Source: Candidatus Omnitrophota bacterium (GTDB lineage: Bacteria > Omnitrophota > Omnitrophia > Omnitrophales > Aquincolibacteriaceae). Taken from it: a DNA stretch of 64,000 nucleotides. The stretch lies in contig JAKLIQ010000001.1 of NCBI GenBank assembly GCA_022709525.1, positions 146,679 to 210,678 of the forward strand, written 5' to 3'. Below the pieces are notes generated by a model. The model was not told the origin of the DNA and searched no databases. It saw nothing but the letters and a program-made list of their open reading frames with translations. Below, piece after piece: positions 8,502 through 53,146 of this stretch. Both the position numbers and the translations under genes were made by a program. Numbering within the stretch: the stretch's first letter is position 1; each line of letters starts with the position of its first letter.

Positions 8502-8502
8502 G

Positions 8503-9629: not shown

Positions 9630-9649
9630 CTTTTTCTTGTTACGGATCT

Positions 9650-25776: not shown

Positions 25777-27126
25777 ATGCAAAAACTTAGCGGCCCAAGG
25801 ATCCAGATCATCCATCGCGGCGGTCAGAGCGTCCTCCAACCGCCGGCCCCCAAAAAAGAAACATCCTTTTTCAGTTTTTTCTCTTCTTCCGGCCCCGATC
25901 ACCGGGCGAAAACCGCCTCTACAGCCCTCAAGGAACCTGTTTTAAAGAAAACGCCCCCGTCGATTCCACAGGCCAACCTTGTCACGGTTGAAAATTGGGT
26001 CGCCATGGAAGAGAAGATCGTTCATGATTACACCGAGCGGAAAGCGGTCCTTCCGTCCAAGCCCGTTTCCCCCGCAACTTCGGCTAAAGGATTGGGATTA
26101 TTCCGGTTTTTAACCTCGCTAAGGTCCGCACTCTCAAAGCAAAACAAGACAGTCCCCGTTAAAGAATCTTTCCGAAAACCTTCTCCTCTTCGGATGCCTC
26201 GCATGCCGCAGATCGATCTTTCGAAGATCAAAAAATGGAGCGGCGCAGAAGAAAAAACCGTCGGGAAACTCATCGAAAAGAAAATAACCCCGGCGGCGCT
26301 CGCAACGTCGTCAACCAAGACGCCTGAACGCCCGGCGCCGGCCGCTTTTGAAGCGTTCAACACGAGGACGACCGTTTCTTTAAATACCGTCAAGCCGTCT
26401 TCCAAAGTTGAACCCAAAGGATCCTTTAAGATCTCATGGACGGCGCTTCTTTTGCCGGGATGGGTTTTGGCGGGGGTTTTGGTTTTTTTGGTGACCCAGG
26501 AATTTTTTAAAAATCAGGAAATGTCCTCACAGCTTGCGCAAGTGACAAGCACAAAAAATTGGCTCGAGCGTTCCTACGCGGATCTGAAACAATCCTCCGT
26601 GGAAAAAAGCGCCGAGATCCAGTGGCTCAATAGCCAGATCCGCGAAATGACCGAAGAATTAAGCGCGGTCAAAGGTCAGAGGGATGCTTATAAAGCCGAC
26701 ATCGCGCGTCTCACGGCGCGTTACGAATCCGAACTTAATCGGTTGCGCGATGACCTTTCCACTAAAGATGCGGTTGTGAGCGGCCTTAAGGCGCAGATCC
26801 GGGCCTTTGAGGGGATCCTTGATAAAGGAGGCATTGCGGCTGTTCCAGGGGCTGTTTCCCAAGTTTTTTCTTCCCAAGCCGAAGGTCCCTCCTCGATGGC
26901 GCGAAGCAGGGTCGTGGAAATCAACGTTCGGCAAGGCTTTTTAGTGATCGATGCAGGCTACGAGCAAGGGATCGATTACGGGGCTTCGGTTGTGATTTCA
27001 AGGGGCGGAAGAGGGCTTACGATGGGCCGCGTCGATCGGGTCTATCCCACCATGTCTACCGTGATCGTTCCGGATAAAAAAATCTTAAATAATATTTTCG
27101 AAGGCGACAGCGTTTCATTTACATAA
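25777..27126 (+). CDS. hypothetical bitopic coiled-coil protein with C-terminal beta-rich domain (possible novel pilus-associated component)
   Basis: Pro/Ser/Lys-rich N-terminal region, one TM helix (WTALLLPGWVLAGVLVFLV), ~90 aa of coiled coil, and a C-terminal domain (VVEINVRQGFLVIDAGYEQGIDYGASVVISRGG...VDRVYPTMSTVIV). Lies immediately upstream of pilMN. The start codon is uncertain. Confidence 0.45.
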   Translation: MQKLSGPRIQIIHRGGQSVLQPPAPKKETSFFSFFSSSGPDHRAKTASTALKEPVLKKTPPSIPQANLVTVENWVAMEEKIVHDYTERKAVLPSKPVSPATSAKGLGLFRFLTSLRSALSKQNKTVPVKESFRKPSPLRMPRMPQIDLSKIKKWSGAEEKTVGKLIEKKITPAALATSSTKTPERPAPAAFEAFNTRTTVSLNTVKPSSKVEPKGSFKISWTALLLPGWVLAGVLVFLVTQEFFKNQEMSSQLAQVTSTKNWLERSYADLKQSSVEKSAEIQWLNSQIREMTEELSAVKGQRDAYKADIARLTARYESELNRLRDDLSTKDAVVSGLKAQIRAFEGILDKGGIAAVPGAVSQVFSSQAEGPSSMARSRVVEINVRQGFLVIDAGYEQGIDYGASVVISRGGRGLTMGRVDRVYPTMSTVIVPDKKILNNIFEGDSVSFT

Positions 27127-27162
27127 TTTACATTTAAAAAAGCGCGGAGACCTCAAAAGATC

Positions 27163-28671
27163 ATGGCAAAAGGAGTAGGCGTTTACATCGGAAACAATGA
27201 AGTGATCGCTGTTTCGACGGCCTATGTCAGCATGACGCCCGTGATCAAAAGTTTCGCGATCGAGCCTATTAACCCCGAAGCCCCTCAAGAGCCCATGATT
27301 GGCAAAGAGGCTCACAAATTTAAAAAATTAAGTCCAGAATCCCGAGCTATTGTTAAAGCCCTGGAAAAAATCAAAGAACCCGGGGCGTATGTCAACGCTG
27401 CTATCAGTCCCTCTCAGGTCGCAACACGTCATTTTATTATGCCGGCCGTCCCCAAAAAGGACGAACCCGGCGCGGTCCGGCATGAAGCCAGCCGCTACAT
27501 TCCGTTCAAGATCTCCGAATCCATCATCGATTACCATGCGCAGATGACCCATCGGAATGTATTCTCCGTGACGGCTTCCGCGGTCCGCGCCGAGGTCCTC
27601 GAAAAATATCTTGAAGACCTTCGCGCCGCTTCAACGAAAGTCCTCATGATCGAACCGGCCTATACCGCGGTCGCGCGCGGATTTGCCGCTCTCAATATGG
27701 CCCGGAAGATGAAAGCCAACGGGTTCGTGATCCTTCAATCCGACGGGAACGTCAATATCACCCTCGCTTCCAAGGGGATCGTTTATCTTTCCCGGGATTT
27801 TATCTTAAGCGGGAAGATCGACGAGGATAAAAACCGTTTTGCCGAGGAGCTTAGGGCTTCGCTTGATTATTTTTATAAGTTGACCGGCGGCGAGGCGATC
27901 GAGCAGATCTTTTTGGCCGGAGCTGGGGATTTTAAAGTGTGGATCGAACATTTGGAGCACGCGTTCAATTATACGATCCGTTTTGATGTCGCGCAGCTAC
28001 CCAGCGCCAAGAATATAACGCCCGAAAATCTCAATATGATCCTAGCCGCTTTTGGAGCGTCGCTCCGGTCTTTGGGGTACAGCTCGCCCCTAGGAGAGAT
28101 CAAATTATTGCCTAAGGATGAGCGCCGGTCGAGCTTGAAGAATTTTTTGATATTCCTTGGGATCGAGTGTCTGGCTATTCTTATTTTATTCGCAGCGGTC
28201 CGGTTTGTGATTTTTCAGCCCTATTTAATGCATTTACAGGCTCGCAGCGAAGCTGTTCTTGGAAATGCGAACCGTGAAAATCCGAACTACGCTTCTTTGT
28301 CTCTCGAAAGTCTTACCGCGGAAAGAGAAAAGCTGGGCGCTCGTGTCCGGCAATTAAAAACTTTTTTTGGAGATAAATATCCAACTTCTGTTTTTCTAAT
28401 GAGTTTGGGACAGGGGTTGCCGCAGTCCATTAAATTAGAATATGTTTCGCTGGAAAAGGAACCCGGAAAAGCGAAGAAGCGCCTGAATATACGAGGGACC
28501 TGTTCTTTGGGGAACGCCGAAAAAGAAACATTGATCGTCAGCAGTTGGGTAAAATCTCTTTCAGCAAGGAAAGTGATGGCCGATAGTTTTAGCGAGATCA
28601 AGCTGGAGGAGATCAAGCGTGAAAAGACCCAGGATCGAGGAATAACCCGCTTCAGGGTAGTCGGGGAATAA
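27163..28671 (+). CDS. type IV pilus assembly PilM-PilN fusion protein
   Basis: N-terminal actin-like PilM region (ASRYIPFKISESIIDYHAQ matches the PilM pattern), then a TM segment and a PilN-like periplasmic coiled-coil domain. 502 aa. Confidence 0.6.
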   Translation: MAKGVGVYIGNNEVIAVSTAYVSMTPVIKSFAIEPINPEAPQEPMIGKEAHKFKKLSPESRAIVKALEKIKEPGAYVNAAISPSQVATRHFIMPAVPKKDEPGAVRHEASRYIPFKISESIIDYHAQMTHRNVFSVTASAVRAEVLEKYLEDLRAASTKVLMIEPAYTAVARGFAALNMARKMKANGFVILQSDGNVNITLASKGIVYLSRDFILSGKIDEDKNRFAEELRASLDYFYKLTGGEAIEQIFLAGAGDFKVWIEHLEHAFNYTIRFDVAQLPSAKNITPENLNMILAAFGASLRSLGYSSPLGEIKLLPKDERRSSLKNFLIFLGIECLAILILFAAVRFVIFQPYLMHLQARSEAVLGNANRENPNYASLSLESLTAEREKLGARVRQLKTFFGDKYPTSVFLMSLGQGLPQSIKLEYVSLEKEPGKAKKRLNIRGTCSLGNAEKETLIVSSWVKSLSARKVMADSFSEIKLEEIKREKTQDRGITRFRVVGE

Positions 28672-28675
28672 GAGA

Positions 28676-29230
28676 ATGATGAACGCGTTTGGAATAAAAT
28701 TCAAAGAGCAACAGCGAGAACAGGCGGTTATGGTCGCGGTGGGGGTAGCTATGTTGATCGCATGTTATGCCCTGATCATACAGCCCGTTTTTAAAAATGT
28801 TACCGCGTTAAGGCAGGAAGTCTTCGATTCCCAAAAAAGGCTGGATCTTTATCAGGAGATCGAGATTTCCAAGGGGAGTTTGAGGGATCTCGAAAGTTCG
28901 CTTGTGACGATGAAAGACCGGTCTCTTTTTCTTGGAAAAATATCGGACCTTGCGAGCCAGAGCCAGTTAAATGTTCAGACTTTGACCCCCAGGACGCAGG
29001 CCGAGGGGGATTACAGCAAGCTGAGCGTTGAATTAGAAGGGAAAGGATCTTTTTTTGCTTTGCTCAAATTCCTAAAAGCGCTGGAAGGAGGAGGCATCAG
29101 TCTTTCGATCAAGAGTATTTCTTTGCTGCGGCAGAGTTCTCTTCGGAAAGAAGAAGAAAAATATCCTCTCCAGATCCAGATCGACATGGGGACCATCTTA
29201 AAATCACAGGCTAAGAAAACCAATGACTAA
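28676..29230 (+). CDS. PilO-like pilus assembly protein
   Basis: N-terminal TM helix, coiled coil and a C-terminal ELEGKGSFFALLKFLKALE motif typical of PilO/GspM-like proteins. Confidence 0.5.
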   Translation: MMNAFGIKFKEQQREQAVMVAVGVAMLIACYALIIQPVFKNVTALRQEVFDSQKRLDLYQEIEISKGSLRDLESSLVTMKDRSLFLGKISDLASQSQLNVQTLTPRTQAEGDYSKLSVELEGKGSFFALLKFLKALEGGGISLSIKSISLLRQSSLRKEEEKYPLQIQIDMGTILKSQAKKTND

Positions 29231-29771
29231 AATCAAAATATGTTTTGCCTCGATCTTTTGGCTCGCATTTTGCTTTTTAACCCCTGCTCTCTACGGGGAA
29301 AGTCCGGCACCTCAAGAGAATCCGATCCCGGGCAGTCCGTCCGAATTTTCCCAGTCAACGGCAGGAGTTGATACAGCTGTTCAAACAGCTCAGCAAGAGA
29401 TCCGCGATCCTTTCGCAACTCCTTCCGGCCAGAACGTCCCCGCGGTCGCCGCTGTTTCTGCGGATATGCCGGAGATCAAAGTAGATCTTCAAGGGATCGG
29501 TTTTGGCAGCAAGGAAGCTTATGCTTTAATCGGCGGCGACATCTTTCATATTGGGGAGGAAAAACGCGGTATTAAATTACTTGAGGTTCGAAGGCATGAG
29601 GTCGATATCTTAGTGAACGGAGGAAAAGTCACGTATCGATTGTTCCCGGGCCAGGAACTTGAAAAGGCCAAAGAGAGGGAACGCAAAAAGAAAGGCGATA
29701 CGGCTCTTTCCGCTCAACAACCGGAGCAGGATCCGTCATCTTTTACGGGAAGGGAGCAGCCATCATTATGA
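29223..29771 (+). CDS. PilP-like lipoprotein/periplasmic pilus assembly protein
   Basis: Signal peptide, an RDPF motif, and small size. Lies between the pilO-like gene and the secretin. Confidence 0.45.
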   Translation: MTKIKICFASIFWLAFCFLTPALYGESPAPQENPIPGSPSEFSQSTAGVDTAVQTAQQEIRDPFATPSGQNVPAVAAVSADMPEIKVDLQGIGFGSKEAYALIGGDIFHIGEEKRGIKLLEVRRHEVDILVNGGKVTYRLFPGQELEKAKERERKKKGDTALSAQQPEQDPSSFTGREQPSL

Positions 29772-31606
29772 AGAAAACCATTCAGCATTTAAAGGTAGCG
29801 ATTTTTTTAACATTAGCGCTTTTTTTATGCGTGCCTTTTACACTTAGAGCGGAAGATTCCGGAAGCCCGTGGGCCCATGGCGAATCGCCGTCGACAACAG
29901 GGGTGACCGATTCCGGGAGTTCCCCGACGTTCGTTCAGACCTCTCCGGATCAGCCACCGCCCGCTTCGGATGATGTCCAAGTTGAAAGGACGGCCGATGG
30001 GAAATATTATCTCGACTTCAAGGCGGCCTCGCTCATCAATGTATTAAACGTGCTTTCGAATCTAAGCGGGATCAATTTTGTTGCCGGCAGAGAAGTCGCG
30101 GATCGTCAGGTTAATATGACGCTTGATAATGTGACCTTGGATGATGTTTTGGACGCCCTCTCCAACAGTTGTAATGTCACTTATGACATGATGCCGGGAA
30201 GGAATATCTATCTTTTCAGGGCTTCGGCGGATTCGGCGGATAAACCCAAGCTCCTCACCAAGGTTTTTAAGCTTTACTATGTTCAAGTCAGCAAAATAAA
30301 GGAAATTGAATCTTCCTCCTCCAGTTCTTCCGGAGGCAGTTCTTCTTCCGGAACAAGCAGCTCGAGCGGCTCAAGCGGTGGGCTCGTGACCTTATCAACC
30401 TCAGATACCGATGATACAGATCTCGAAAATTCCGCAATCGTAAAAGCGATTGAAAAGATCCTTTCAGAGCGTGGAAAAGTTTCGGTCGATGACCGTTCGA
30501 ACAGTTTGATCGTCACCGATACCGAAGATCGTCTCAAAATGATCGAATCTGCGATCACGCAGCTAGATCGTCCGCTCAACCAGGTGCTCATCAACGTGCT
30601 GCTGATCGAGACATTCGAAGATCTGGATCGAGATTTGGGCCTCATTTGGGGAGATACGGACGGATTTTTCGGAACAATCTCGGGAGGGTCTCAAGATACC
30701 AATTTCCCTTTTTTTACAGGCCCGGTAGGGGGTCACTCAGGCACCTCTTTTTGGGATACCGCATACAATATGTTTAAAAATACTGGAAAGCAATTTAATC
30801 CATCTCATGACAGCGGAGCTCTTGCTACTGGCACCAGAGATTTTACGGCTTTCTCGATTACGTTGCAGGCGTTAGAAAGCGCCTCGAAACTTAAGGTTTT
30901 GGCCAAGCCTAAAATCCTTGTCTTAGATAATCATCCAGCGCTTATCAAAATCGCGACCAATGCCGCGATTGGCACAACAACGGTCACAGAAGCCGGAGGC
31001 GCGGGCACAAGTTCCACGAGCATTGAACGCTCTGAGATTGGCACCATTCTCCGTGTGACACCTCTTATCAACACAGGTGACCGTGTGACTATGACCGTCG
31101 AGCCAACTTTCGCAACCGTGGATCAGTCAGCGATCACAGTTGCCGCAACAGAGACAGGAGACCCCACTGTTCGTACCGCCAGGACGACCATGATGATCAA
31201 TGACGGGCAGACGATCGCGTTGGGCGGCTTGCTTTTTAGCAATCAATCCAACGGGAACAGAAAAGTACCTTTCTTTGGGAATCTTCCAGTGGTAGGCAAA
31301 GCGTTGTTTACCAACAATACAAAATCTCTTCAAGATCGCGAGTTGATACTTTTTGTGACGCCTAACATCATCACAAATTCTTCCGTTCTTGAGACGCTCA
31401 GTGTGCCGGAAAAGCGCTTGCAATACGAAGATGAGTCTGCGCCTTGGTGGAAAGTGAAGCAAAAGCAATGGTATAAAGAAATGAAAGAAGGCCCGGAGAA
31501 GGATCTTGATTTTGATAGTTATTTTAATGTTCGCAAAAAACTGATCGATACGACGCTGGATACCCTGGATCAGACCGCGAAGGCGCCGTCCAAAGGGAAG
31601 CCGTAA
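29768..31606 (+). CDS. secretin (PilQ/GspD family)
   Basis: Signal peptide, N-domains, a Ser/Gly-rich linker (SSSSSSSGGSSSSGTSSSSGSSGG), and a C-terminal secretin domain (IALGGLLFSNQSNGNRKVPFFGNLPVVGKALF...LILFVTPNII). Confidence 0.8.
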   Translation: MKKTIQHLKVAIFLTLALFLCVPFTLRAEDSGSPWAHGESPSTTGVTDSGSSPTFVQTSPDQPPPASDDVQVERTADGKYYLDFKAASLINVLNVLSNLSGINFVAGREVADRQVNMTLDNVTLDDVLDALSNSCNVTYDMMPGRNIYLFRASADSADKPKLLTKVFKLYYVQVSKIKEIESSSSSSSGGSSSSGTSSSSGSSGGLVTLSTSDTDDTDLENSAIVKAIEKILSERGKVSVDDRSNSLIVTDTEDRLKMIESAITQLDRPLNQVLINVLLIETFEDLDRDLGLIWGDTDGFFGTISGGSQDTNFPFFTGPVGGHSGTSFWDTAYNMFKNTGKQFNPSHDSGALATGTRDFTAFSITLQALESASKLKVLAKPKILVLDNHPALIKIATNAAIGTTTVTEAGGAGTSSTSIERSEIGTILRVTPLINTGDRVTMTVEPTFATVDQSAITVAATETGDPTVRTARTTMMINDGQTIALGGLLFSNQSNGNRKVPFFGNLPVVGKALFTNNTKSLQDRELILFVTPNIITNSSVLETLSVPEKRLQYEDESAPWWKVKQKQWYKEMKEGPEKDLDFDSYFNVRKKLIDTTLDTLDQTAKAPSKGKP

Positions 31607-31623
31607 GGAAGGATGGGGCGACT

Positions 31624-33318
31624 GTGCGCATCAACGCTCTTTTAGGGGATTTGCTTGTTGAAAAGGGGGCCATCACTCGCACCCAACTGAACCAAGCGTT
31701 GACCCAGCAGAAAAATTCACGCGAACCGCTAGGTCAAGTGCTCATCCAGATGGGGTTATTGGATGAGGCCCAGCTGCGCATGGTCCTTTCCGAACAGTTG
31801 GGCGTTTCCTTTCTTACCGCCAATCAGTTGAAGCCGCGCACAGATCAGCGCCTCAAAGAATGTATCCCGCCGGATTTTGCCCTAGCCAATTTGGTTCTGC
31901 CTTTAGACCGCCAGGGACAAGTACTTAAAGTGGCTGTGGCTAAGGTGCCCGACATCATTTTCCTCGATAATCTTCGCAAAATTACAGGACTTGATATCGT
32001 GACAGTCCTTTCTACAGAGAACGAACTTCGTCGCGCGATCGAAGCTTATTACAGCAGCACGGACCTTCAGGAGTTTGTTTCTTCCTCGGAAGTGGATGAT
32101 ATCAAAGAGGATTATGGCGATCAAAAAGACGAGAACAAGGTCGATCTGGAAGCGACAATCGCGGAAGCCGGAAAAGGGCCGGTCGTCAAACTCGTCAATT
32201 TTATGATCAAAAAAGCCTTGGATGATCGCGCTAGCGATATCCATATCGAGCCATTCGCCGCAAAGATCTCGGTTCGTTACCGCGTGGACGGCAATCTTTA
32301 TGAGCTTCCTCCTCCGCCCAGAGAGCTGCATAATGCCATCGTTTCCCGTATCAAGATCCTATCAAAGATGGATATCGCGGAAAAACGTATCCCGCAGGAC
32401 GGCTCCTTTTCGATCCAGTACAATGATCAGAAGATCGATGTCCGCGTTTCGACGATCCCAATTATCTATGGCGAAAAAGTTGTCATGCGTATCCTTGCAA
32501 AACGCATGGAACTTTTAAACATGCAGACGCTCGGTTTTGAGCCCGAACAATTGGCGCTTTTTGAAAAAGCGCTGATGCGGCCGTACGGGCTTCTTTTGGT
32601 GACCGGTCCCACCGGAAGCGGTAAAAGCACAACGCTTTATGCGGCATTGAATAAACGTCTTTCTCCGGAGATCAATATTCTCACGATCGAAGATCCGGTC
32701 GAGTATCAGCTTCAGGGGGTCAATCAAGTTCAGGTGAAACCGGATATCGGGCTGACGTTTGCGAGCGGTCTTCGGGCATTCCTCCGCCAAGATCCCGACG
32801 TCATTCTCGTGGGAGAAGTTCGCGATCTTGAGACCGCAGAGATCTGTATTCGCGCCTCGCTTACGGGGCATTTGGTGTTAAGCACGCTTCACACTAATGA
32901 CGCGGTAACGGCAGTAACCCGTCTGATCGATATCGGGATCCCTCCTTATTTGGTCGCGGGGAGTCTTGGCCTTGTCGCTGCGCAACGCTTACTCCGCCTC
33001 TTGTGCCCTCATTGCAAGGTCCCCTATAAGCCCGATGCGAAGATTGTCGACGAATACAAGATCAAAGCCGGTACGCTTTATAATGCTAAAGGATGCGAAA
33101 AATGCCGGAATATCGGTTACTGGGGTCGCATGGCGATCTATGAAGTTTTACCGATCGATGAAGACATTCGTCGCCTTATCACCAAGGACGCAGACCTTGA
33201 GAAACTGCGTCAGGTCCAAAAACAAAAACATTACGAAAGCCTTCTCCAGAACGGATTAAGGAAGGTAGAGCAGGGTATTACGACCCTTGACGAGGTTTTA
33301 AGCGTCGCTTATGAATGA
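31624..33318 (+). CDS. type IV pilus / type II secretion assembly ATPase (PilB/GspE family)
   Basis: T2SSE_N-like N-domain, Walker A VTGPTGSGKSTT, Asp/His boxes, and a tetracysteine zinc motif (CPHCK...CEKC). Confidence 0.85.
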   Translation: MRINALLGDLLVEKGAITRTQLNQALTQQKNSREPLGQVLIQMGLLDEAQLRMVLSEQLGVSFLTANQLKPRTDQRLKECIPPDFALANLVLPLDRQGQVLKVAVAKVPDIIFLDNLRKITGLDIVTVLSTENELRRAIEAYYSSTDLQEFVSSSEVDDIKEDYGDQKDENKVDLEATIAEAGKGPVVKLVNFMIKKALDDRASDIHIEPFAAKISVRYRVDGNLYELPPPPRELHNAIVSRIKILSKMDIAEKRIPQDGSFSIQYNDQKIDVRVSTIPIIYGEKVVMRILAKRMELLNMQTLGFEPEQLALFEKALMRPYGLLLVTGPTGSGKSTTLYAALNKRLSPEINILTIEDPVEYQLQGVNQVQVKPDIGLTFASGLRAFLRQDPDVILVGEVRDLETAEICIRASLTGHLVLSTLHTNDAVTAVTRLIDIGIPPYLVAGSLGLVAAQRLLRLLCPHCKVPYKPDAKIVDEYKIKAGTLYNAKGCEKCRNIGYWGRMAIYEVLPIDEDIRRLITKDADLEKLRQVQKQKHYESLLQNGLRKVEQGITTLDEVLSVAYE

Positions 33319-34639: not shown

Positions 34640-34644
34640 TGTTC

Positions 34645-34673
34645 TTGATGTCATTATTGAAAAGGGCTATACT
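34645..34673 (+). promoter_or_regulatory. candidate sigma70 promoter for the pilin operon (TTGATG-17-TATACT)
   Basis: -35 TTGATG at 34645-34650, exactly 17 nt of spacer, and -10 TATACT at 34668-34673. This is ~65 nt upstream of the pilin ATG, which has an AAGGAG RBS. Confidence 0.45.
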
Positions 34674-34740
34674 GCGGCTAACATCTTAGGGCGCAGATCA
34701 GGAAAAAAAGAATTTAATCTTTAACGAAGGAGAAAAAAAC

Positions 34741-35226
34741 ATGAAAACTAAAAAGGGTTTTACACTGATCGAGCTTCTCATCGTGGTCATCATCATCGCC
34801 GTTTTAGCGGCTTTAATTCTTCCGCGTTTCTTAAGTCAGCCGGAGCGTGCCAGGGTCGCTGAGGCCCAGCAGCAGCTCGGCGCTCTTCGCCGCGCCCAGA
34901 TTGCGAATATGGACGCAACAGGAGACGACAGTTTTATAGCCGTTACAGCCACTACGACCGGTTCAGGAGGTACTACCGCAGGATCGGGGTGGGGAGTCCT
35001 TGGTTTAGTGGAGCCAGACGCGGCACAGGGGGCGAATTTTACTTATACGTGCACCGCAGGGACCACTCCCACAACCAACTTGTGTACTGCCACGCGTAGC
35101 ACCATTCCTGGGAATACAATTATCCTTCGGGAGGATGGTAATTATTTATGCGGCGGAACGTATTGGCCGGTGGGCGGAGCGGCGCAAACAGATACCAGCA
35201 CGACCGGATGCACTACTCGAGCATAG
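34741..35226 (+). CDS. type IV pilin (prepilin with class III signal peptide), Thr-rich C-terminal region
   Basis: MKTKKG|FTLIELLIVVIIIAVLAALILP is an N-methylation-type leader plus hydrophobic helix. The C-terminal half is Thr/Gly-rich with four Cys. Confidence 0.8.
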   Translation: MKTKKGFTLIELLIVVIIIAVLAALILPRFLSQPERARVAEAQQQLGALRRAQIANMDATGDDSFIAVTATTTGSGGTTAGSGWGVLGLVEPDAAQGANFTYTCTAGTTPTTNLCTATRSTIPGNTIILREDGNYLCGGTYWPVGGAAQTDTSTTGCTTRA

Positions 35227-35289
35227 GTTTTCTTTTTGATAGCGGGTTTCGTTGTTATTTTTCAAAAAATAAAAAGCGAGGGTCGCGGC

Positions 35290-35766
35290 ATGAGATATGA
35301 GGGTAAGGGTTTTACATTGGCCGAGCTTCTCATTGTCATCGTGATTTTGGGTATTTTGGGCGGCATTGCTCTTCCGAAATTTTTCCCGCAAGCTGAAAAA
35401 GGACGCGTCGCGGAAGCCGTAGGGATGTTAAGCGCTATTCGTATGGGAGAGGAAGCCTATAAGCTTGAGAATGGCGTATATCTTGCTATCACCAACAGTG
35501 CCGCCGGCACTGAGTGGAATAAAATCGGAATGGATAGCCCCAATACTAGCACCGCTGACAGCCGTAATTTTGAATACAGTGTAGCGCTAGTTTCGTCCAG
35601 AAGCAGTACGGGACTTCCCGGGTTTGATGCTACTGCTACGCGATGCACTGCGCAGTCATGGTGCAAGAACGATAGCCCATCTGCCGAATATGGCGGCAAG
35701 ACGATCATTCTCAATGAATTAGGCGTTTGGGATTCCGCCGCAACACACCCATTTAAGCCGTCTTAA
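35290..35766 (+). CDS. type IV pilin paralog 2
   Basis: MRYEGKG|FTLAELLIVIVILGILGGIALP. ATG at 35290; the ORF track's upstream start is unlikely. Confidence 0.75.
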   Translation: MRYEGKGFTLAELLIVIVILGILGGIALPKFFPQAEKGRVAEAVGMLSAIRMGEEAYKLENGVYLAITNSAAGTEWNKIGMDSPNTSTADSRNFEYSVALVSSRSSTGLPGFDATATRCTAQSWCKNDSPSAEYGGKTIILNELGVWDSAATHPFKPS

Positions 35767-35796
35767 TCTTACAAGTATTTACCATCCTCAAAAGCC

Positions 35797-36330
35797 ATGG
35801 GGAGTAGCGTTATGTTTCATCAGGGAGGTTCGTTAAGAAAACAGCGCGACATTCCCCGAAGTGCGGGGTTTACGTTAACTGAGGTGATGATTGTAGTTAT
35901 CATCATCGGGGTTCTTGCCACGCTCGCCATCCCTCGTTTTTTTGGCCAAACCGAAAAAGCCAAAGCTGCCGAAGCAATTAACATGTTAAGCGTTATTCGG
36001 CGCGCCCAGCTTCAGTATTATGACGCTCACGATAGAGTATACGTATCGATCCCGGATAACTGCAGCCCATCAGGTGCTGATGTGGCTACCAGTAAAACCG
36101 ATTTTTTAGAAAAACTTGGGATCGAAATTCCCGCCTGCGCTAACGCCCATTGGACTTATAGTACCGCCAACGTTGCCAATAGCGGTGGGACAAATTCCCT
36201 TATTGTCACAGCCACCCGGAAGCCCATTGGGGGTGAAAAAGTCTCAGGCGCCTTGACCATCGATGATAATGGGACGTGGAGCGGAGCAGGGGAATATGCG
36301 AAATCTGCGGAAAAATACTGGCCGTTCTAA
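35797..36330 (+). CDS. type IV pilin paralog 3
   Basis: Leader ...PRSAG|FTLTEVMIVVIIIGVLATLAIP. ATG at 35797 or 35812. Confidence 0.7.
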   Translation: MGSSVMFHQGGSLRKQRDIPRSAGFTLTEVMIVVIIIGVLATLAIPRFFGQTEKAKAAEAINMLSVIRRAQLQYYDAHDRVYVSIPDNCSPSGADVATSKTDFLEKLGIEIPACANAHWTYSTANVANSGGTNSLIVTATRKPIGGEKVSGALTIDDNGTWSGAGEYAKSAEKYWPF

Positions 36331-36473
36331 GATATATCCATCTTCCCAAGCTATTCTTTCCCATCTAAAACAAGATCGCTTCTCATCTTTTGAAAACCGT
36401 CGATTTTTGCTTTTTTTGATCTCGCCTGTTACATTTTATAGTAGGTTTCGTTGAAGACAAAGGCAGGTTTGAC

Positions 36474-36887
36474 ATGAAAAAAGAAATTGGTTTTACGCTT
36501 TTGGAGATCATGGTCAGCATGGTAGTCCTGACCGTTGTGGCCGTAGGAGTGATCGGTACGGTTGCTTTTACAAAGCGGTCTGCGGCCGAAATGCAACAAC
36601 GGCTAAGCGCTATTGATCTCGCGGAAAAAAAGATCGCGGAGATTAAAACCCAAAAGATTGGCGCCATTCCCTTAACGCACGAAACCATTACCACCGCTTT
36701 TTCGGAGTTGTCTAGTGCTGTGATGGCCTATAAGGTCGAAAAGCTTGGCGTACCGTATCTTTTCAACGTCGAAATTGAAATACGTTGGGATTATGGCTGG
36801 CGGGACAAAGCAAATCCATGCGCAACAAATTGGGATTCTTGCGATAAAAAAATGATTTTACGCACAGTTTATTTTAGCCCGTCTTGA
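36474..36887 (+). CDS. minor pilin / pseudopilin
   Basis: MKKEIG|FTLLEIMVSMVVLTVVAV prepilin-type N-terminus. 137 aa. Confidence 0.6.
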   Translation: MKKEIGFTLLEIMVSMVVLTVVAVGVIGTVAFTKRSAAEMQQRLSAIDLAEKKIAEIKTQKIGAIPLTHETITTAFSELSSAVMAYKVEKLGVPYLFNVEIEIRWDYGWRDKANPCATNWDSCDKKMILRTVYFSPS

Positions 36888-36991
36888 AAAGGTATCGCAG
36901 TGAAGTTCGGAGGTTTTAAAAAAGGAGGTTAGCGATTAATTGCCTTGGTCGTTATCCCAATTTCGTTAAATCGGTTCACGGCTTAACTCTC

Positions 36992-37681
36992 TTGGAGCTT
37001 TTGCTCGCCCTTTCAATTCTTTCTTCCGTGCTTATCGCCGGGGGGGTCTTGTCTATTTCCGTTGCCAAAATACTTTATCGCGCAAATGCGCAAACCCGGG
37101 CCTTTGACACGGTTAATTCTGTTATTCGGTTCATGGAAAAGGATATTAAGCAAATGGTGCCTGGCACCGTTGGCGTTTACAATCAATTATGCAGCAACGC
37201 AAGGGGCACTTCCGCGGGTACCTTAACGGGTTATGGCCCCATGTTTGGATGGCGGCTTGCCCTTCTTGATTTTCAAAGCAGTCTGCCGCTTTCAAAAACA
37301 GGATCTAATAATTGTGGTTGGTGGGGATTATCAGAAAGATATGGCTATTGCTATAATGTAATTTCGAGCCGCGCCGGAGGGTTCGACGGATACATTTCTA
37401 ATTATGCAAGCGATGTGGCGGTCGTGCCTTACATCCAGAAGGAAGATTTCAAAACTCCCGTGTCTGATGAGGATTTTTTAGCGTGTCGCGATAATCCGTG
37501 CTATAAAACCCAACACGACTCTCCTGCCACCTTCTGCCCTAATATATGGGACATAGAAACTGATTCTGAAGGAAATCAAACCTTAATTCTCAGAATCGGA
37601 GCGATCGTTACAAAGGACGGGAAAACGTTGGCAAGGGCCGGTGTCCGGAAATATTTTGCCCTGCCGAAGGTGAAAACGTGA
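36992..37681 (+). CDS. minor pilin / pseudopilin (true start upstream of the track ORF)
   Basis: Upstream of the TTG at 36992 the frame stays open back to a stop at 36917 and encodes ...SVHG|LTLLELLLALSIL, a prepilin cleavage motif. There is no in-frame ATG/GTG/TTG upstream; an ATT at 36935 sits 7 nt after AAAGGAGG. Confidence 0.5.
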   Translation: MELLLALSILSSVLIAGGVLSISVAKILYRANAQTRAFDTVNSVIRFMEKDIKQMVPGTVGVYNQLCSNARGTSAGTLTGYGPMFGWRLALLDFQSSLPLSKTGSNNCGWWGLSERYGYCYNVISSRAGGFDGYISNYASDVAVVPYIQKEDFKTPVSDEDFLACRDNPCYKTQHDSPATFCPNIWDIETDSEGNQTLILRIGAIVTKDGKTLARAGVRKYFALPKVKT

Positions 37682-40600
37682 GAAATTTAAAAACAAACGA
37701 ACGCGGCTATGCTTTGCTTGCAACGATTTTGATAGTCATCCTCATTGTCTCAGGGCTTACGGGAGCTTTTCTTAACATGACCCGGCAAGGCCGCAGTATC
37801 CAACGGCTCAAAGACCGTGCCGAAATGAGTTTGTATGCGCAAGCCGTTGTTGAAGCGGTTGAAAGTCTTTTTTACAGTTATGTAATAACTCATGCGACCT
37901 ATCCAAATTTTTCAAGTGAACAAAAAAACGAGGTATGCGATCCATGTGTTTCGACGGATACCGCTGGATTTTTTAGGACAAAAGCGTTGGCGAATATCCA
38001 GTCCTTAACAAGCCATATGCCTTACATAAAAGATCCGGCAAACCTTAATAGCATTCCCGAGGTTCGCGTTCGCCAAATTGGATCTTCAACCGAGCCCGCC
38101 GATGCTGTTCGGGAATATGAGGTGACGGTTGCGATGGTCAACACCCGTTCGGGAGAACGCCTGGCCGTTAAACAAAAACTCGAAGTCCGGGCGGGCACGC
38201 TTTTTGATTTCTCTATTTTTTATGACGACGACCTTGAGATCGCGCCGGGCCCGGAAAGTTCGATCCAGGGGCCGATCTTCACAAACGGGGATGTCTACTT
38301 GATGAGCGGGAGGACCAGTGACTTTGCAACCAATGCCGGGCTTAAGTTTCTGCTTCCCTATACCAATCCGTTAAATCCGCATCCGCAAAATTATATTCTT
38401 AAAAGCCATGGAGATATTTATTTCTATTTCAAGCGAGCCATGGCAGAAAATTATATGTTGAATAGCCAAGAATTTTCAGGCGCTGATGCCTATATCGCCA
38501 ATTTGCCACCCTACTATCTCGAAGCTTTAGGAGTTAGTGATCTCGCTTCGCTTAAGGCGAGGGTGGCTGGCGGCGAAAAACTTCCTGAGGTCACGCCGCC
38601 CTGGAACGTGCATCAATCCGATTGGTGCGATTATTCCAAAATATATGCAGGATGCCAGTTGGAAAAAGATGGAACCGAAAACAGGTTTTTTCCATATTTT
38701 TACTATTTTTCGAATGGGGCTGAGCTCGGAAATTATAACGGAGTCATCCCCGTGACTCGTATCAGTGTTTATGATAGCAGCGGGGCTAGTCCTCTTAACA
38801 TCGGGACAACTCCGACCGGGGTTCTTGTTCAATCCTACTCAAGGTTTGCAGCCGGAACTGTTTATCATGCGCCTCGTATGGGCCCCTACGCCTATCCGTG
38901 GACAGCATACAGAGTGAGCGTTTCTCCGGCTTTTGACGTTACAAATTTTCCAAAACTTTATTCCGGTTGGTCGCCTGAACATCCCGTAGCTACAAGAAAA
39001 AATGTTACGGGAGAGTCTCATCCATTAAAAGAAAAAATGGACAATCCTTTAAAAGACCCGCAGTGGGGCGGCGTTAGCTCTCAGGGAAATATTTTGATTA
39101 TGGACAATGTCGACCCTAAAGCATTACCGATTGGCGTTGCTAATCCGGATCCAAGCAACATCAATCCGAATCATCTTCTCATCGAACCCGTAGAGGAAAG
39201 CGATTCCGTCGAGATCAAAAATTTGAAGTATCAGGGGATCGCGGATATCGATATTCGTTGCGCTAACAGTTTATGCACAGCTCATAGCGTGTGCGTGAAA
39301 GGCGAATATCCATGTTTTTCAAGTAGCGCTGCGCCGGAAGAATTCATTGATTATGGCTGGATCTATGACTACCGGCTCAAAGGACGCTATAGAACCTTAA
39401 CCCTTTTCATGGACAAACTTAGGAAATATTTTCTTGATCGTATTCCCAGAACAGACGCGACGGGAACCGCGCTCGGAAATGAGTATTTTCGCGATGGTAT
39501 AAGTATTTATATTCAAACCCTTCCGATGCTTGATTCTCTGGGCGTTCCTCAAGGCGACGCCGAAGATAACTCTGTGCGCCTTGTGAGGGTCAAAGACTCC
39601 GCGGCCGCCACATATCCCGGAGCGATCCCCTCGGCATTGCAAAGTGGAAAGATCACCGGGATGACTCTTGCGACAAATGGACGGCTTTGGGTTCAAGGAG
39701 ATTTCAATATTTATTATGGTTATAACGAGAGCGGGGCTCCGGGAGGCGTTTGTTCCTATGACGAGATTATTCAACAGACATGCAAAGTGCCGCCGGTTGC
39801 TATTTTTAGTGACAGCTTTGGAATTCTTTCTAAGGAATGGAAAGATGCTTACGGAGCGTCCACTTCTTTGGATTCCCGAAACGTTGGAAACGATCTTAGT
39901 TTAAATACTGCGGTCGTGACAGGTTTTCTGGAATCCCGCCTCGAGCGCAGATACAGCTCTCTTCCTGGCCCGCGTTGGAATACAAACGGGATTGATGCGA
40001 AATATTTAACGGGGCCTGTCAATGGAATTTACTATCTCAAAGTATCGCATCCTGATTTTGATCTAGCCAAAACTTCCATGTCGTATTGGCCTGAATGGGC
40101 TAAGACCGCGGGCGATACCGAAATACCCGTAGTGACATGTGAAGTAGATAAAACCACTTATACCCCGCCACTTACCGCTTCCGTTGCAGGATGCCTGGGC
40201 TATGTCGGAGTTCCCTCCGTAGCGCTGCATTCCTCTTATGTTTTAACGGGCTATTCGCCCAATTGCTGGAATTGTCTAGGCGTTCGAAATCCTAGTTATA
40301 CCGGTGTTCCTACAGGGGAAGGAAGCGCAGTGTCTCATACGGGTGATACTTGCGCTGCGGATGTAGCCAGCGGGGCTCCATTAAGACATTCCGAATATCG
40401 AAATATTGGCGCTTGCCGGGACGGAAGCGATCTAAATGGGGCGGTAATTCCAACAGAGAATCCTTATTACAATTCCCCCTGCAGAATTACAGCGACAAAT
40501 GGGGCGATCCCTGGGGAAATTAATTTTACAGAGATTTACAACGCTTGGCGCCGAGATGATGCAGGCAATCATATCAGTCTGATTACAACCAACGAAAGCT

Positions 40601-41679
40601 ATTTTTCCGGATTGCCGTCCATGAATCCTTATGAAAAACTTGATTCAAAAAGCAATGATGTGGACCCTATCACCAATCAGGCAGACCCTTCTAATGATAT
40701 CTGGGATCAGGACAGGGGAGGTTTTTTGATCTATAAAGTTCCCGGCGCTAGCCCCGGGGAACCGGGAGGGCAATTAAAAGCGGCGGGAAAATACAGGTTT
40801 TTCCTTTTTTGTCCTTATGGAATATGCAGCAACGCGTACCCTGAATTAAAAGCAAAAAACGGCTGGTTTGTTAGTTGTTCAGGCGCCGATTCGGCGCCCT
40901 CGAGCGGCGCCTGTTCTTTTGAAGGAAGAAACGATGTCTTTAAACCCGAGTATAAAAATTTTCTGGAACCGCTTTATGAAAGATTGCAAATGGCCGATCA
41001 ACACGGAAATCCTCTTTACTGGTATAGAAACTATAGCTCGTCCAGCCCAGGGTATCGTTACAGAGATTTTCTGGTTATAAAATTGGTCAATCCCTATCCG
41101 GCGGCAAGCATTGACCCGGGATCAAGCAGTCAAGTCATAGGCCAATATTATTTCAAAAATCGAACTTGCCATCCCGCACTCGGAACCTCCTGTTCTTCCG
41201 GCGCCAACAAGATCTATCTCCGCGCATGCGACATTTCATCATCGGGGCTCGGAGGATATCTTAATGCTATCGAACAGGTAAATTATCCGCCCAATCTTCA
41301 TTACAGCTACCCCTATTACGAACGCCTATATGATGTGAAATACAGTGGAGGATATGAAAACTTGATCAACTTTCAAGAAAATTGGCGGGATTTGAGCGAT
41401 CCTAGTGAGGATATTCGACGTAGAGTCTTTTTTTCAGGAGTCACGACGGCCCCGTGGTTTTCGGAAGAATTAAAAAAATCAGACGGAGCGCCGGCATATT
41501 ATGGAACCGATTATTACAGGGCTCCGGAACGAACCTATGACTACAACGAAACCCTAAGAGATGATCCTCCGCCCGGAACTCCCAAGCTATTTTCTGTGGC
41601 TCAAAAGACGGGCCAGAAGGAATTAGACCCTGATAATCTTGATTATGTTGATTCTACTACCTCGTCCGGGGGTTCTTGA
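37678..41679 (+). CDS. giant PilX_N-anchored, Cys-rich extracellular protein (putative pilus-associated adhesin, 1333 aa)
   Basis: N-terminus NERGYALLATILIVILIVSGLTGAFLNMT resembles the PilX N-terminal (pseudopilin-like) anchor. The remaining ~1250 aa are rich in Cys, Tyr, Trp, Asn, Gly and Pro with no recognised domain. It lies among the pseudopilins and is AT-richer than the flanking genes. Confidence 0.5.
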   Translation: MRNLKTNERGYALLATILIVILIVSGLTGAFLNMTRQGRSIQRLKDRAEMSLYAQAVVEAVESLFYSYVITHATYPNFSSEQKNEVCDPCVSTDTAGFFRTKALANIQSLTSHMPYIKDPANLNSIPEVRVRQIGSSTEPADAVREYEVTVAMVNTRSGERLAVKQKLEVRAGTLFDFSIFYDDDLEIAPGPESSIQGPIFTNGDVYLMSGRTSDFATNAGLKFLLPYTNPLNPHPQNYILKSHGDIYFYFKRAMAENYMLNSQEFSGADAYIANLPPYYLEALGVSDLASLKARVAGGEKLPEVTPPWNVHQSDWCDYSKIYAGCQLEKDGTENRFFPYFYYFSNGAELGNYNGVIPVTRISVYDSSGASPLNIGTTPTGVLVQSYSRFAAGTVYHAPRMGPYAYPWTAYRVSVSPAFDVTNFPKLYSGWSPEHPVATRKNVTGESHPLKEKMDNPLKDPQWGGVSSQGNILIMDNVDPKALPIGVANPDPSNINPNHLLIEPVEESDSVEIKNLKYQGIADIDIRCANSLCTAHSVCVKGEYPCFSSSAAPEEFIDYGWIYDYRLKGRYRTLTLFMDKLRKYFLDRIPRTDATGTALGNEYFRDGISIYIQTLPMLDSLGVPQGDAEDNSVRLVRVKDSAAATYPGAIPSALQSGKITGMTLATNGRLWVQGDFNIYYGYNESGAPGGVCSYDEIIQQTCKVPPVAIFSDSFGILSKEWKDAYGASTSLDSRNVGNDLSLNTAVVTGFLESRLERRYSSLPGPRWNTNGIDAKYLTGPVNGIYYLKVSHPDFDLAKTSMSYWPEWAKTAGDTEIPVVTCEVDKTTYTPPLTASVAGCLGYVGVPSVALHSSYVLTGYSPNCWNCLGVRNPSYTGVPTGEGSAVSHTGDTCAADVASGAPLRHSEYRNIGACRDGSDLNGAVIPTENPYYNSPCRITATNGAIPGEINFTEIYNAWRRDDAGNHISLITTNESYFSGLPSMNPYEKLDSKSNDVDPITNQADPSNDIWDQDRGGFLIYKVPGASPGEPGGQLKAAGKYRFFLFCPYGICSNAYPELKAKNGWFVSCSGADSAPSSGACSFEGRNDVFKPEYKNFLEPLYERLQMADQHGNPLYWYRNYSSSSPGYRYRDFLVIKLVNPYPAASIDPGSSSQVIGQYYFKNRTCHPALGTSCSSGANKIYLRACDISSSGLGGYLNAIEQVNYPPNLHYSYPYYERLYDVKYSGGYENLINFQENWRDLSDPSEDIRRRVFFSGVTTAPWFSEELKKSDGAPAYYGTDYYRAPERTYDYNETLRDDPPPGTPKLFSVAQKTGQKELDPDNLDYVDSTTSSGGS

Positions 41680-42230
41680 TGGGGAAACGGGGCATAACAT
41701 TACTTGAGACCATCGTAACGTTGGTAATTATGGCGATTGGCGCCTCGATCGTTGTTCCTAAGATTCAACAAACCGCCGAAAACAAACGCGCTGACAGCGC
41801 GATTCAAAGCCTTCGGACGATTTCTCATTGTATGCGCCTCTATGCGCTGGAAAAAAATCTTGAAGTTTTTCAAAATACCTCCTCTGGCAGCTTATCAGCG
41901 CTTGAAAAGCTATCAACCATGCAAGGAGGGAGTGGTTGTTTTGACTATAATGCGCTTGAGCCAACCTATGATTTTTTTGCGAACAAAGATGCGAATAGCG
42001 ATGAATGGATCTCCTGGTATGGAACGGATTGGGGTAATTGGGTATCGCTTGTCGCGTGTGACAAAAAAAGCAAACGTGTAATTTTTTTGAGATTTGCGGG
42101 TGACCCTACGCGGGGTCTTTATTATGGAAGCGCCATTTTTGATTTTAAGGACACAGCGTGCCCGGATCCAAATTCAAACATTGCGCTTCCGTCAGATTTT
42201 AAAAATCTTGTCCGTAATATCCCAGAATGA
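41676..42230 (+). CDS. pseudopilin (GspG/H-like)
   Basis: MMGKRG|ITLLETIVTLVIMAIGASIVVP prepilin N-terminus. Overlaps the stop of the giant gene. Confidence 0.6.
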   Translation: MMGKRGITLLETIVTLVIMAIGASIVVPKIQQTAENKRADSAIQSLRTISHCMRLYALEKNLEVFQNTSSGSLSALEKLSTMQGGSGCFDYNALEPTYDFFANKDANSDEWISWYGTDWGNWVSLVACDKKSKRVIFLRFAGDPTRGLYYGSAIFDFKDTACPDPNSNIALPSDFKNLVRNIPE

Positions 42231-43095: not shown

Positions 43096-43182
43096 AGACA
43101 AGAGCATAGGTAGTTGGCAGCAAAGAAGTATATGGTAGGTGGTATGTAGTATGTGGCAAATCAAGAAAGAAGCGGTAAAGTC

Positions 43183-48398: not shown

Positions 48399-48449
48399 TC
48401 CTTTTTGAAATAATATCATTCGGAAGACCATAAGGGAGTTTGACTCAAG

Positions 48450-49871: not shown

Positions 49872-49874
49872 ACT

Positions 49875-53144: not shown

Positions 53145-53146
53145 TC

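Follow-up and report, generated by a model that had tools for sequence, protein, structure and literature searches.

A conserved, single-operon type IV filament locus with a natural PilM-PilN fusion and a giant pilin-like protein in an Omnitrophota bacterium

We analysed a 64,000-nucleotide stretch of DNA from a Candidatus Omnitrophota bacterium (assembly GCA_022709525.1, contig JAKLIQ010000001.1, forward-strand positions 146,679 to 210,678; hereafter the window) and found in it a real, complete and conserved type IV filament locus, made up of 15 genes that all run in one direction (+ strand) between positions 25777 and 43095. We read this locus as a type IV pilus-like filament machine of the branch that includes type IVa pili (T4aP) and type II secretion systems (T2SS) as well as mannose-sensitive haemagglutinin (MSH) pili, and as one that probably builds an adhesive pilus with a giant adhesin at its tip. 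The likely role of such a pilus is attachment to surfaces or to host or prey cells, which fits the symbiotic or predatory lifestyle proposed for Omnitrophota, a phylum of uncultured nanobacteria thought to be attached to, or predatory on, other cells. An earlier note on the window had described a complete T4P/T2SS-like locus with a PilM-PilN fusion, three tandem pilins and no PilT or PilD in cis, and this description is correct.

The locus opens with a membrane coiled-coil protein, followed by a PilM-PilN fusion (hereafter PilMN), a PilO/GspM protein, a PilP-like protein, a PilQ-type secretin, a PilB/MshE-type ATPase and a platform protein; then come three paralogous pilins, a four-gene minor-pilin cassette (GspI-, GspJ-, giant GspK/HpsA- and GspH/G-like) and a response regulator. 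Components were assigned by Pfam and NCBIfam profile searches of the open reading frames (ORFs) of the locus, in which PilM_2, Secretin, T2SSE, T2SSF and N_methyl gave matches (N_methyl in five of the pilin-like genes) and T2SSM/GspM fell just below threshold. The 15 genes are as follows, with a slash marking the cleavage site in prepilin leaders.

25777-27126, + strand: conserved accessory protein, 449 amino acids (aa); no family match above threshold
27163-28671, + strand: PilM-PilN fusion, 502 aa; PilM_2 E 8e-12 (residues 6-192), TIGR01175
28676-29230, + strand: PilO/GspM-family bitopic inner-membrane protein, 184 aa; T2SSM 27.2 bits (gathering threshold 27.8)
29223-29771, + strand: PilP-like periplasmic protein, 182 aa; assigned by position, signal peptide/anchor and RDPF motif
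29768-31606, + strand: secretin, 612 aa; Secretin E 3e-39, Secretin_N 1e-12, FecR_C/STN at residues 82-151
31624-33318, + strand: assembly ATPase, 564 aa; T2SSE E 8e-139, N-terminal MshEN domain
33311-34639, + strand: inner-membrane platform protein PilC/GspF, 442 aa; T2SSF E 2e-54, two domains
34741-35226, + strand: pilin 1, 161 aa; N_methyl E 3e-8, leader MKTKKG/FTLIELL
35290-35766, + strand: pilin 2, 158 aa; N_methyl E 5e-6, leader MRYEGKG/FTLAELL
35797-36330, + strand: pilin 3, 177 aa; N_methyl E 6e-7, long leader ending ..RSAG/FTLTEVM
36474-36887, + strand: GspI/PilV-like minor pilin, 137 aa; N_methyl E 6e-7, TIGR01707 gspI E 8e-7
36935-37681, + strand: GspJ/PilW-like minor pilin, 248 aa if read from ATT 36935; leader ..SVHG/LTLLELL
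37678-41679, + strand: giant GspK/PilX/HpsA-like putative pilin-adhesin, 1333 aa; prepilin-like N-terminus, I-J-K synteny
41679-42230, + strand: GspH/GspG-like minor pilin, 183-184 aa; N_methyl E 8e-5, leader MGKRG/ITLLETIV
42343-43095, + strand: response regulator, 250 aa; Response_reg E 2e-17 at residues 122-231

The gene order, the single strand and the overlapping or short spacers that the earlier note had reported all hold, with intergenic gaps of -8 to +143 nt and the + strand used throughout 25777-42230. That interval holds 14 of the ORFs, but the note ended it too early: the unit also takes in the conserved response regulator at 42343-43095 and therefore reaches 43095. The pilin part was also said to be richer in AT than its surroundings, and the minor-pilin genes do have a GC content of 0.44-0.47 (0.42-0.48 at third codon positions, GC3) against 0.55-0.56 (GC3 ~0.66) in the flanking housekeeping genes, with the core machine genes intermediate. 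Promoter and terminator scans of the locus gave no signal above shuffled expectation.

A T4aP-like identity of the machine is supported by the fusion's PilM fold, by a secretin of PilQ type, by the MshEN N-terminus of the ATPase, by the three Cys-bearing pilins below the GspG cut-off and by the position of the ATPase outside the GspE clade. An adhesive pilus is favoured over a secretion system because Seymour et al. (PMC10066038) scored T4aP clusters in nearly all Omnitrophota and recorded that V. archaeovorus expresses them. Four other readings bear on the evidence below. It is conceivable, if somewhat doubtful, that the Omnitrophota/Elusimicrobiota system is a distinct, unclassified branch of type IV filaments in an intermediate T4aP-T2SS/MSH state, i.e., a single PilT-independent operon in which a PilM-like fusion with a PilN docking peptide would be a "frozen" GspL precursor and specificity would be set by a horizontally exchanged giant-adhesin tip cassette for seizing hosts or prey. 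A T2SS, in which a short periplasmic pseudopilus pushes folded exoproteins through the secretin, PilMN is the GspL of the lineage and a neighbouring GH144/CBM9 enzyme is a candidate substrate, seems to us unlikely. We regard as quite improbable an MSH-type pilus, meaning a single-locus, PilT-less T4aP derivative with an MshE-type ATPase activated by cyclic di-GMP (c-di-GMP) and a large MshQ-like tip protein, and as very improbable a competence pilus that takes up DNA and so feeds DNA or nucleotides to a small-genome bacterium.

PilMN starts with an actin-like PilM domain (residues 1 to ~305); the linker motif IKLLP comes next, then a transmembrane (TM) helix and a coiled coil, and last a ferredoxin-like PilN domain. 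The IKLLP motif corresponds to the N-terminal INLLP peptide by which PilN binds PilM, and in an alignment of 32 sequences its residues L315-L316-P317, along with R321, are invariant or nearly so. When the PDB was searched with the family profile of the fusion, the PilM proteins of Thermus, Pseudomonas and Myxococcus were matched, as were, collinearly but weakly (E 0.026), residues 5-125 of Myxococcus PilN, and no GspL chain was matched. The AlphaFold (AF2) model of PilMN (predicted local distance difference test score, pLDDT, 85.5) contains an actin-like domain and a long TM/coiled-coil helix, together with a domain of alpha-beta-beta repeats. Its top match in Foldseek was the P. aeruginosa PilM:PilN(1-12) chimera 5eou (E 3e-18), with other PilM structures, followed by FtsA, and the cytoplasmic domains of GspL were reached only at ~1e-9; by fold, therefore, PilMN is PilM-like rather than GspL-like, and the presence of a full-size PilM domain in the cytoplasm speaks against a T2SS. 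In favour of a T2SS is the view that GspL/PulL is itself the equivalent of a PilM+PilN fusion and that T2SS, like MSHA, was derived from T4aP by loss of PilT (PMC10191384, PMC4471445). Alignments by hhalign of the PilMN profile to single E. coli HofM, HofN and GspL sequences were uninformative, with probabilities of 1-10%. Judged from its sequence, PilMN has the architecture of GspL and the character of PilM and PilN. Its homologs fall into 96 clusters, nearly all of ~509 aa and 48-70% identical to it, and every named one is from Omnitrophota.

The two proteins that follow are less sharply defined. The 184-aa protein finds its best matches in GspM models (NCBIfam GspM_XpsM, E 4e-9, below cut-off), a point for the T2SS reading, and its orthologs in relatives give a weak match to Pfam PilO. 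The earlier note had called the next protein PilP; its position, signal peptide, size and RDPF motif, the last also found in E. coli HofP, agree with this label, but profile searches lend it nothing, as neither Pfam nor NCBIfam gave a match and a PDB profile search returned noise. The protein has a beta-rich C-terminal domain, and D62-P63-F64 and a G.I.L..G core are invariant among six orthologs. If it were taken as the GspC equivalent of a T2SS, it would be one without the PDZ or coiled-coil features of GspC.

The secretin is PilQ-type in architecture: an N0-like domain precedes a lone Secretin_N domain and the secretin core, and a C-terminal tail of ~75 aa ends the protein. The single N-domain, in place of the N1-N3 series, again argues against a T2SS. 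It covers positions 5-427 of the 428 in the PilQ model TIGR02515 (206 bits, cut-off 284) and only positions 254-599 of the GspD model (188 bits). Its score against the MshL model TIGR02519 (117.6, cut-off 250.2) is unfavourable to an MSH-type pilus, and its partial match to HofQ models is one of the few points in favour of competence. A Ser/Gly-rich low-complexity insert, SSSSSSSGGSSSSGTSSSSGSSGG, splits the Secretin_N domain at 30308-30385 (secretin residues ~181-206).

The ATPase is, as the earlier note had it, the single assembly-type ATPase of the window and carries the zinc tetracysteine motif, CPHC(461)/CEKC(491), in addition to a Walker A motif, GPTGSGKS. When all remaining ORFs of 90 aa or more in the 64-kb window were scanned with Pfam, no second T2SSE-family ATPase and no A24 prepilin peptidase came up, only housekeeping, RND efflux, sensor kinase and glycoside hydrolase genes. 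Over its full length the ATPase matches the PilB structures of Geobacter and Myxococcus in the PDB at 488-492 bits. The N-terminal region gives 97 bits with Thermus PilF, 74 with Geobacter PilB, 67 with Myxococcus PilB and 54 with V. cholerae MshE, and only 17.7 bits with the N-domain (N1E) of the T2SS ATPase XpsE, so the N-terminus is MshEN/PilB-like and not GspE-like. That it aligns end to end with V. cholerae MshE-N (5htl, residues 4-143) and passes the model of the c-di-GMP motif domain, NF053729 (67 bits, cut-off 38), could be taken to favour an MSH-type pilus; against this, MshEN is equally present in the true PilB of Geobacter, Myxococcus and Thermus, which score higher. The PilB and GspE equivalog models were both missed, at 617.6 for TIGR02538 (cut-off 675.65) and 593.9 for TIGR02533 (cut-off 630.25).

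A phylogeny of the ATPase had been proposed in the earlier note, with firm placement in canonical GspE, alongside GspC/L/M equivalents, as the outcome that would indicate a secretion system. In our tree, which is crude and has unsupported deep nodes (neighbor-joining, Kimura distances, 376 core columns, 100 bootstraps), the ATPases of Omnitrophota and Elusimicrobia instead form a clade with 100% bootstrap support, and they are excluded from the proteobacterial GspE clade (also 100%), in which E. coli GspE groups with six further T2SS ATPases. The platform protein scores 323 bits with the NCBIfam GspF model and 280 with PilC, and its scores with E. coli HofC and GspF are equal.

Downstream of the platform gene lie the three pilins, which the earlier note had recognised as prepilin paralogs, each with its own leader; they are indeed 34-37% identical to one another over nearly their full length, and each has a G/FTL.E site. 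Pilin 1 has four Cys and Thr/Gly-rich surface segments. Pilin 2 has a CTAQSWC pair and orthologs of up to 57% identity in relatives; its ORF opens at 35236, and the ATG at 35290 is the start used in the public gene call. Pilin 3 has two Cys, and its best orthologs, at 41-43% identity, are the last pilins of two related loci (L084 and L088). All three score 43-46 bits against GspG, far under the cut-off of 88.85, and pilin 1 matches only the 48 N-terminal positions of that model (45.6 bits, cut-off 88.9). Three Cys-bearing pilins of the major type (3-4 in relatives) where a T2SS would have one GspG, all of them under the GspG cut-off, weigh against a T2SS. A weak match of pilin 2 to ComP_DUS (E 0.0013), shared by its L088 ortholog, would favour competence, were it not below threshold (20 bits, 27.3 needed). 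The antigenic diversification that the earlier note had suggested for the three pilins finds no support at the DNA level, as the pilin region holds no shared DNA repeats or cassettes, no notable inverted repeats and no tandem repeats, and the locus holds no recombinase; rather, 3-4 tandem pilins are a lineage-wide trait in Omnitrophota relatives.

The minor-pilin cassette (36474-42230) begins with the GspI-like pilin, which reaches 16 bits with E. coli GspI. The GspJ-like pilin has E. coli GspJ as its best E. coli match (E 2e-5). The earlier note had listed a pseudopilin here, and its 229-aa ORF has no leader from the first canonical start; a leader does lie in frame upstream, where the ATT at 36935 is the sole start available under genetic code table 11, placed six nt after AGGAGG and followed by an in-frame prepilin motif. 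Translation thus appears to begin at this rare codon. Its L081 ortholog starts with ATG and carries the identical G/LTLLE site. In the public record the gene is shortened to 217 aa (8294-8947 of L001, corresponding to 37028-37681 of the window), and because this call drops the prepilin leader, the protein carries no N_methyl annotation there. The GspH/G-like pilin fits the GspG and GspH models in its N-terminal region only and is 64% identical to the product of the gene downstream of the giant's homolog in L081.

The giant itself combines a prepilin-like N-terminus (..NERG/YALLA, without Glu5) with an insert of ~1000 aa and a conserved C-terminal block. It had been named a PilX_N protein in the earlier note, but the giant has no Pfam match, PilX_N included, and NCBIfam GspK fails on it as well, so that it is GspK/PilX-like only by its features and by matches at the level of the family. 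Among 5.8e9 proteins in a word-indexed database, only one close cluster was found, and a profile search of the same database with the giant alignment returned only two sequences, both already known. An exhaustive HMMER scan of 1.84e9 representatives gave 358 matches at E<1e-3, including 31 at E<1e-30 with lengths of 900-1330 aa. All named members are from Omnitrophota and annotated as "hypothetical", and the E<1e-30 family is so far confined to this phylum. In a set of 44 aligned members, NCBIfam HpsA matches 26 (best 2e-22), T2SS_GspK three and PilX_N, weakly, one. Conserved blocks of the family are DLEI.PGP....QGPIF.NG..YL, ATNGRLW.QGDYN and PPAAIFSDSFGVLS, and the C-terminal block reads YSGGLENLIN.QE.W ... 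YY.AP.R..DYN. A further homolog of 1330 aa (P0107) may lie beyond the stretch read of the L088 contig.

The AF2 model of the giant (pLDDT 58 overall) shows the 68-residue N-terminal helix and beta head typical of pilins, is of moderate confidence to residue ~815 and holds nothing usable past that point, residues 817-1197 being unmodelled; no PDB fold matched it. According to a 2026 study, PilK/GspK homologs either obtain their terminal beta-strand from PilY1/PilC or provide one themselves in cis, and systems without PilY1 often have a PilK homolog with a large insert, such as CpaL (PMC13533445). As the giant fits this description, we infer that it is best seen as a pilin-adhesin fusion at the filament tip. 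A tip pilin of 1333 aa would be hard to fit into a periplasmic pseudopilus, and this counts against a T2SS.

Comparison with related Omnitrophota loci (L078, L080-84, L088 and L089) shows which parts of the unit are stable. The core order ([accessory]-PilMN-O-P-Q-B-C-pilins-response regulator) is kept in seven further loci, where 3-4 tandem pilins and the response regulator are followed by a GH144-like glucanase with CBM9, and where leuCD often lies upstream of the unit. Identity to the window is 69-80% for the ATPase, 59-65% for the secretin, 53-67% for PilMN, 53-60% for the platform protein, 49-68% for the response regulator, 30-57% for the pilins and 30-54% for PilO, the PilP-like protein and the upstream protein. 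The response regulator pairs an intact REC domain with an N-terminal half that is receiver-like but degenerate. It lacks an output domain, and no cognate kinase adjoins it; in L078 and L082-84 it stands right after the pilin array. In these same four loci the minor-pilin cassette is missing, and in L082 a PemK toxin pair occupies its site. The cassette of L081 is 50-65% identical to that of the window, and that of L089, I(147)-J(247)-giant(1240), just 28-37%, in the N-terminal parts. These sequence comparisons indicate that the cassette is a variable module of low GC3 that evolves fast, placed at the 3' end of an operon that is itself conserved. In L088 (13379-15146), two multi-pass membrane proteins (277 and 519 aa) take the place of a minor-pilin cassette after the pilin array.

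At the 5' end, the 449-aa protein is encoded directly upstream of PilMN in L078, L080, L082-84, L088 and L089 too (30-37% identity). Its N-terminal region is K/R-rich, a single TM helix spans residues ~226-246, and the protein also has a coiled coil and, at the C-terminus, an MreC-like beta domain; its charge distribution predicts a cytoplasmic N-terminus, with the coiled coil and the beta domain in the periplasm. Its matches are weak (Filament/SMC coiled-coil; MreC, E 0.003), and a PDB profile search returned coiled-coil noise only. A repeated motif, approximately DL..VKNW.ALEEK.VHDY.E.K, occurs about twice in the window copy (25777-26450) and about five times in L083 (8152-9300).

Outside the phylum, the closest ATPases found are those of Elusimicrobia (45-47% identity), whose loci encode a 515-551-aa protein that aligns end to end with the PilMN profile; the order PilMN-O-P-secretin-ATPase-platform-pilin is common to Omnitrophota and Elusimicrobia. 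Further afield, the Bdellovibrionota/Myxococcota loci L019, L026, L029, L036 and L047 are D-E-F-G..J-K-L operons of predatory bacteria, and the proteins of ~500-590 aa in their GspL position match both the PilM and the PilN parts of the Omnitrophota PilMN profile weakly. Such matches hint at a sequence continuum between PilMN fusions and GspL.

Several observations weigh against an adhesive T4aP. PilT and PilD are absent from the 64-kb window and from the flanks (+/-10 kb) of seven related loci, so that a retractile T4aP would be conjecture. The ATPase core taken alone is equidistant from the two families (GspE 413-416 bits, PilB 403-410 bits) and thus, with 403-416 bits to both, not diagnostic, and the deep backbone of the ATPase tree has supports below 45%. 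A phmmer comparison of the proteins in the window with E. coli's Gsp/Hof sets discriminates only weakly; in it, the pilins and the ATPase score slightly higher against GspG/GspE than against PpdD/HofB. The identities of PilP and PilO lie below family thresholds. Both 24-residue c-di-GMP repeats of the ATPase have Leu or Pro for the leading Arg of the "RLG" motif, here and in Omnitrophota relatives, and otherwise fit the published consensus; from these residues, c-di-GMP regulation of the ATPase appears possible. The adhesin role of the giant is an inference, because its C-terminal half could not be modelled. Finally, the parts list (L-like fusion, M, C-like, D-F, G-like, H-K) and the D-E-F adjacency fit a T2SS equally well. 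With the deep backbone of the ATPase tree unsupported, and the search for PilT limited to the window and the flanks of its relatives, a pilus can be called no more than the likelier of the two.

The content of the locus can be mapped one to one onto GspL, M, C, D, E, F, G, H, I, J and K, its secretin-ATPase-platform adjacency is common to the Bdellovibrionota/Myxococcota operons mentioned above, and PilT was seen near none of eight Omnitrophota loci; these points speak for a T2SS. To them may be added that T2SS-like loci have been reported near giant genes of Omnitrophota and that the GH144/CBM9 enzyme, with its signal peptide, is kept just downstream in five relatives. The latter linkage may be mere inherited synteny, as leuCD is likewise kept upstream, and the ATPase, PilM fold, secretin, C-equivalent, pilins and giant all point away from a T2SS, as described. 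For an MSH-type pilus speak the single-locus organisation, which is an MSH trait (PMC6668835), the gene order (I-like fusion, J, K, L, E and G, followed by pilins and, distally, a large protein) and the position of MshQ, ~1200 aa, after IJK homologs in V. cholerae (PMC13533445). On the other side, the locus has no MshM- or MshN-like genes, the giant is a prepilin-like relative of GspK/HpsA and not a separate protein of the MshQ/PilY1 type, and the Arg of the c-di-GMP motif is missing. T4aP serve DNA uptake in many bacteria (PMC6668835), which lends a competence pilus some general plausibility, yet the window holds no ComEA, ComEC or DprA gene, and a giant tip protein with 3-4 shaft pilins would be atypical of competence pili. 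A Tad/T4b or archaeal-type system was rejected, since there were no TadZ/RcpC/Flp or FlaI-type matches and the BfpD/TadA models scored far lower.

Under the favoured reading of an adhesive pilus, the parts may work together as follows. Since all seven pilin-like proteins bear cleavable G/x leaders and the window holds no prepilin peptidase, this enzyme must be encoded elsewhere; by the T4aP/T2SS model, it would cleave the G/F, G/L, G/I and G/Y leaders of the seven. The single PilB/MshE-type ATPase, predicted to act as a hexamer, would drive the PilC platform and so polymerise the pilins. PilM and PilN are covalently joined, with the IKLLP docking motif kept in cis, as sequence and structural evidence indicate, and the fusion would form, with PilO and the PilP-like protein, an alignment complex joining the motor to the PilQ-type secretin. 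The GspI-, GspJ- and giant GspK-like proteins would make up the initiation and tip complex, in which the ~1000-residue insert of the giant would act as an adhesin exposed at the tip of the filament and the conserved C-terminus of the giant would complete its own pilin fold in cis, as in GspK and CpaL. The three paralogous pilins would build the shaft, and the REC-only regulator, possibly together with c-di-GMP acting through MshEN, may tune assembly.

The stretch from the pilin array to the GH144 gene is an insertion hotspot, as the corresponding parts of L082 (19230-19830 and 20731-21090) also show. After the regulator, at 43153-43542, lies a low-GC3 (0.43) gene of the "23S rRNA intervening sequence protein"/bAvd-like type, which is also present in L082 and has no counterpart in L078, L083 or L084; the PemK toxin-antitoxin pair of L082 sits between the last pilin and the regulator. 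The GH144-type enzyme (Pfam Glycoamylase), which also carries CBM9 and has a signal peptide at its N-terminus, follows at 43549-45477. It could be a secretion substrate, or its linkage could be inherited synteny. Farther downstream are an efflux operon at 46464-56317, which encodes two tandem RND (AcrB-family) pumps (1089 and 1056 aa) besides an outer-membrane factor and a membrane-fusion protein, and two adjoining sensor histidine kinases at 59665-63422 with HisKA_7TM N-terminal domains, one also with GAF, beside which no response regulator was identified. Upstream of the locus, five tRNA genes (Phe, Arg, Lys, Leu and Gly) lie within 4.5 kb at 5691-10146, and three of these are packed closely together on the + strand at 9557-10146.

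A locus of this kind has already been reported at the phylum level. What is new is the natural PilM-PilN fusion, also present in Elusimicrobiota, the distinct ATPase clade and the modular tip cassette with an Omnitrophota-specific giant family. Pili are the most plausible contact organ of Omnitrophota, and the locus gives a parts list for the main pilus of the lineage, in which the hypervariable tip cassette, with its pilin-like family of ~900-1330 aa, is the likely determinant of what the pilus binds. The conserved fusion bears on the origin of GspL from PilM and PilN. Current models are extended to a poorly studied clade, not overturned, and the public annotation is corrected in two places, where one pilin was truncated and the giant was labelled merely "type II secretion system protein".

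Compared with the T4aP of M. xanthus, P. aeruginosa and T. thermophilus, the locus shares the domains of PilM and PilN, PilO along with a PilP-like protein, a secretin of the N0-N1 kind, a PilB-type ATPase bearing MshEN, PilC, short-leader type IVa-like pilins with Cys pairs and an I/J/K/H minor-pilin set. It differs in that PilM and PilN are one polypeptide, that PilT and PilD in cis, AMIN domains and PilY1 are lacking, that the PilX/K homolog has 1333 aa and that the genes form one operon, whereas T4aP genes are usually scattered (PMC6668835). With the T2SS of E. coli K-12 (gsp) and Vibrio (Eps) it has in common an L-like fusion architecture, a GspM-like partner, the D-E-F adjacency, a set of I-J-K-H pseudopilins, a GspK-like subunit that lacks Glu5 and the absence of a retraction ATPase; in contrast to them, its ATPase lies outside the GspE clade and has another N-terminal domain, its fusion has a PilM-like cytoplasmic domain, its secretin has a single N-domain, its several major-type pilins are all under the GspG cut-off and it has no GspC PDZ/coiled-coil module.

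Individual components allow closer comparisons. The best structural matches to the predicted fusion are 5eou, an engineered PilM:PilN(1-12), and 2ych, Thermus PilM with a PilN peptide, and in the natural fusion the INLLP-type peptide (IKLLP) likewise comes directly after the PilM domain; here, however, the whole of PilN (TM helix, coiled coil and ferredoxin-like domain) is naturally fused, and the fusion is conserved in the lineage. The giant resembles GspK, CpaL and HpsA in its prepilin-like N-terminus without Glu5, in the large insert between pilin head and conserved C-terminus and in the place of its gene directly after the I- and J-like genes, but at 1333 aa it is far larger than the 327 aa of E. 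coli GspK, and it has no Pfam or PDB match. The MSHA system of V. cholerae, finally, is similar in its single locus, its lack of PilT, its MshEN ATPase and the large protein encoded at the minor-pilin genes' distal end; it differs in having MshM and MshN, which are missing here, in a secretin of the MshL type, which ours is not by score, and in that the large protein here is pilin-like and not MshQ.

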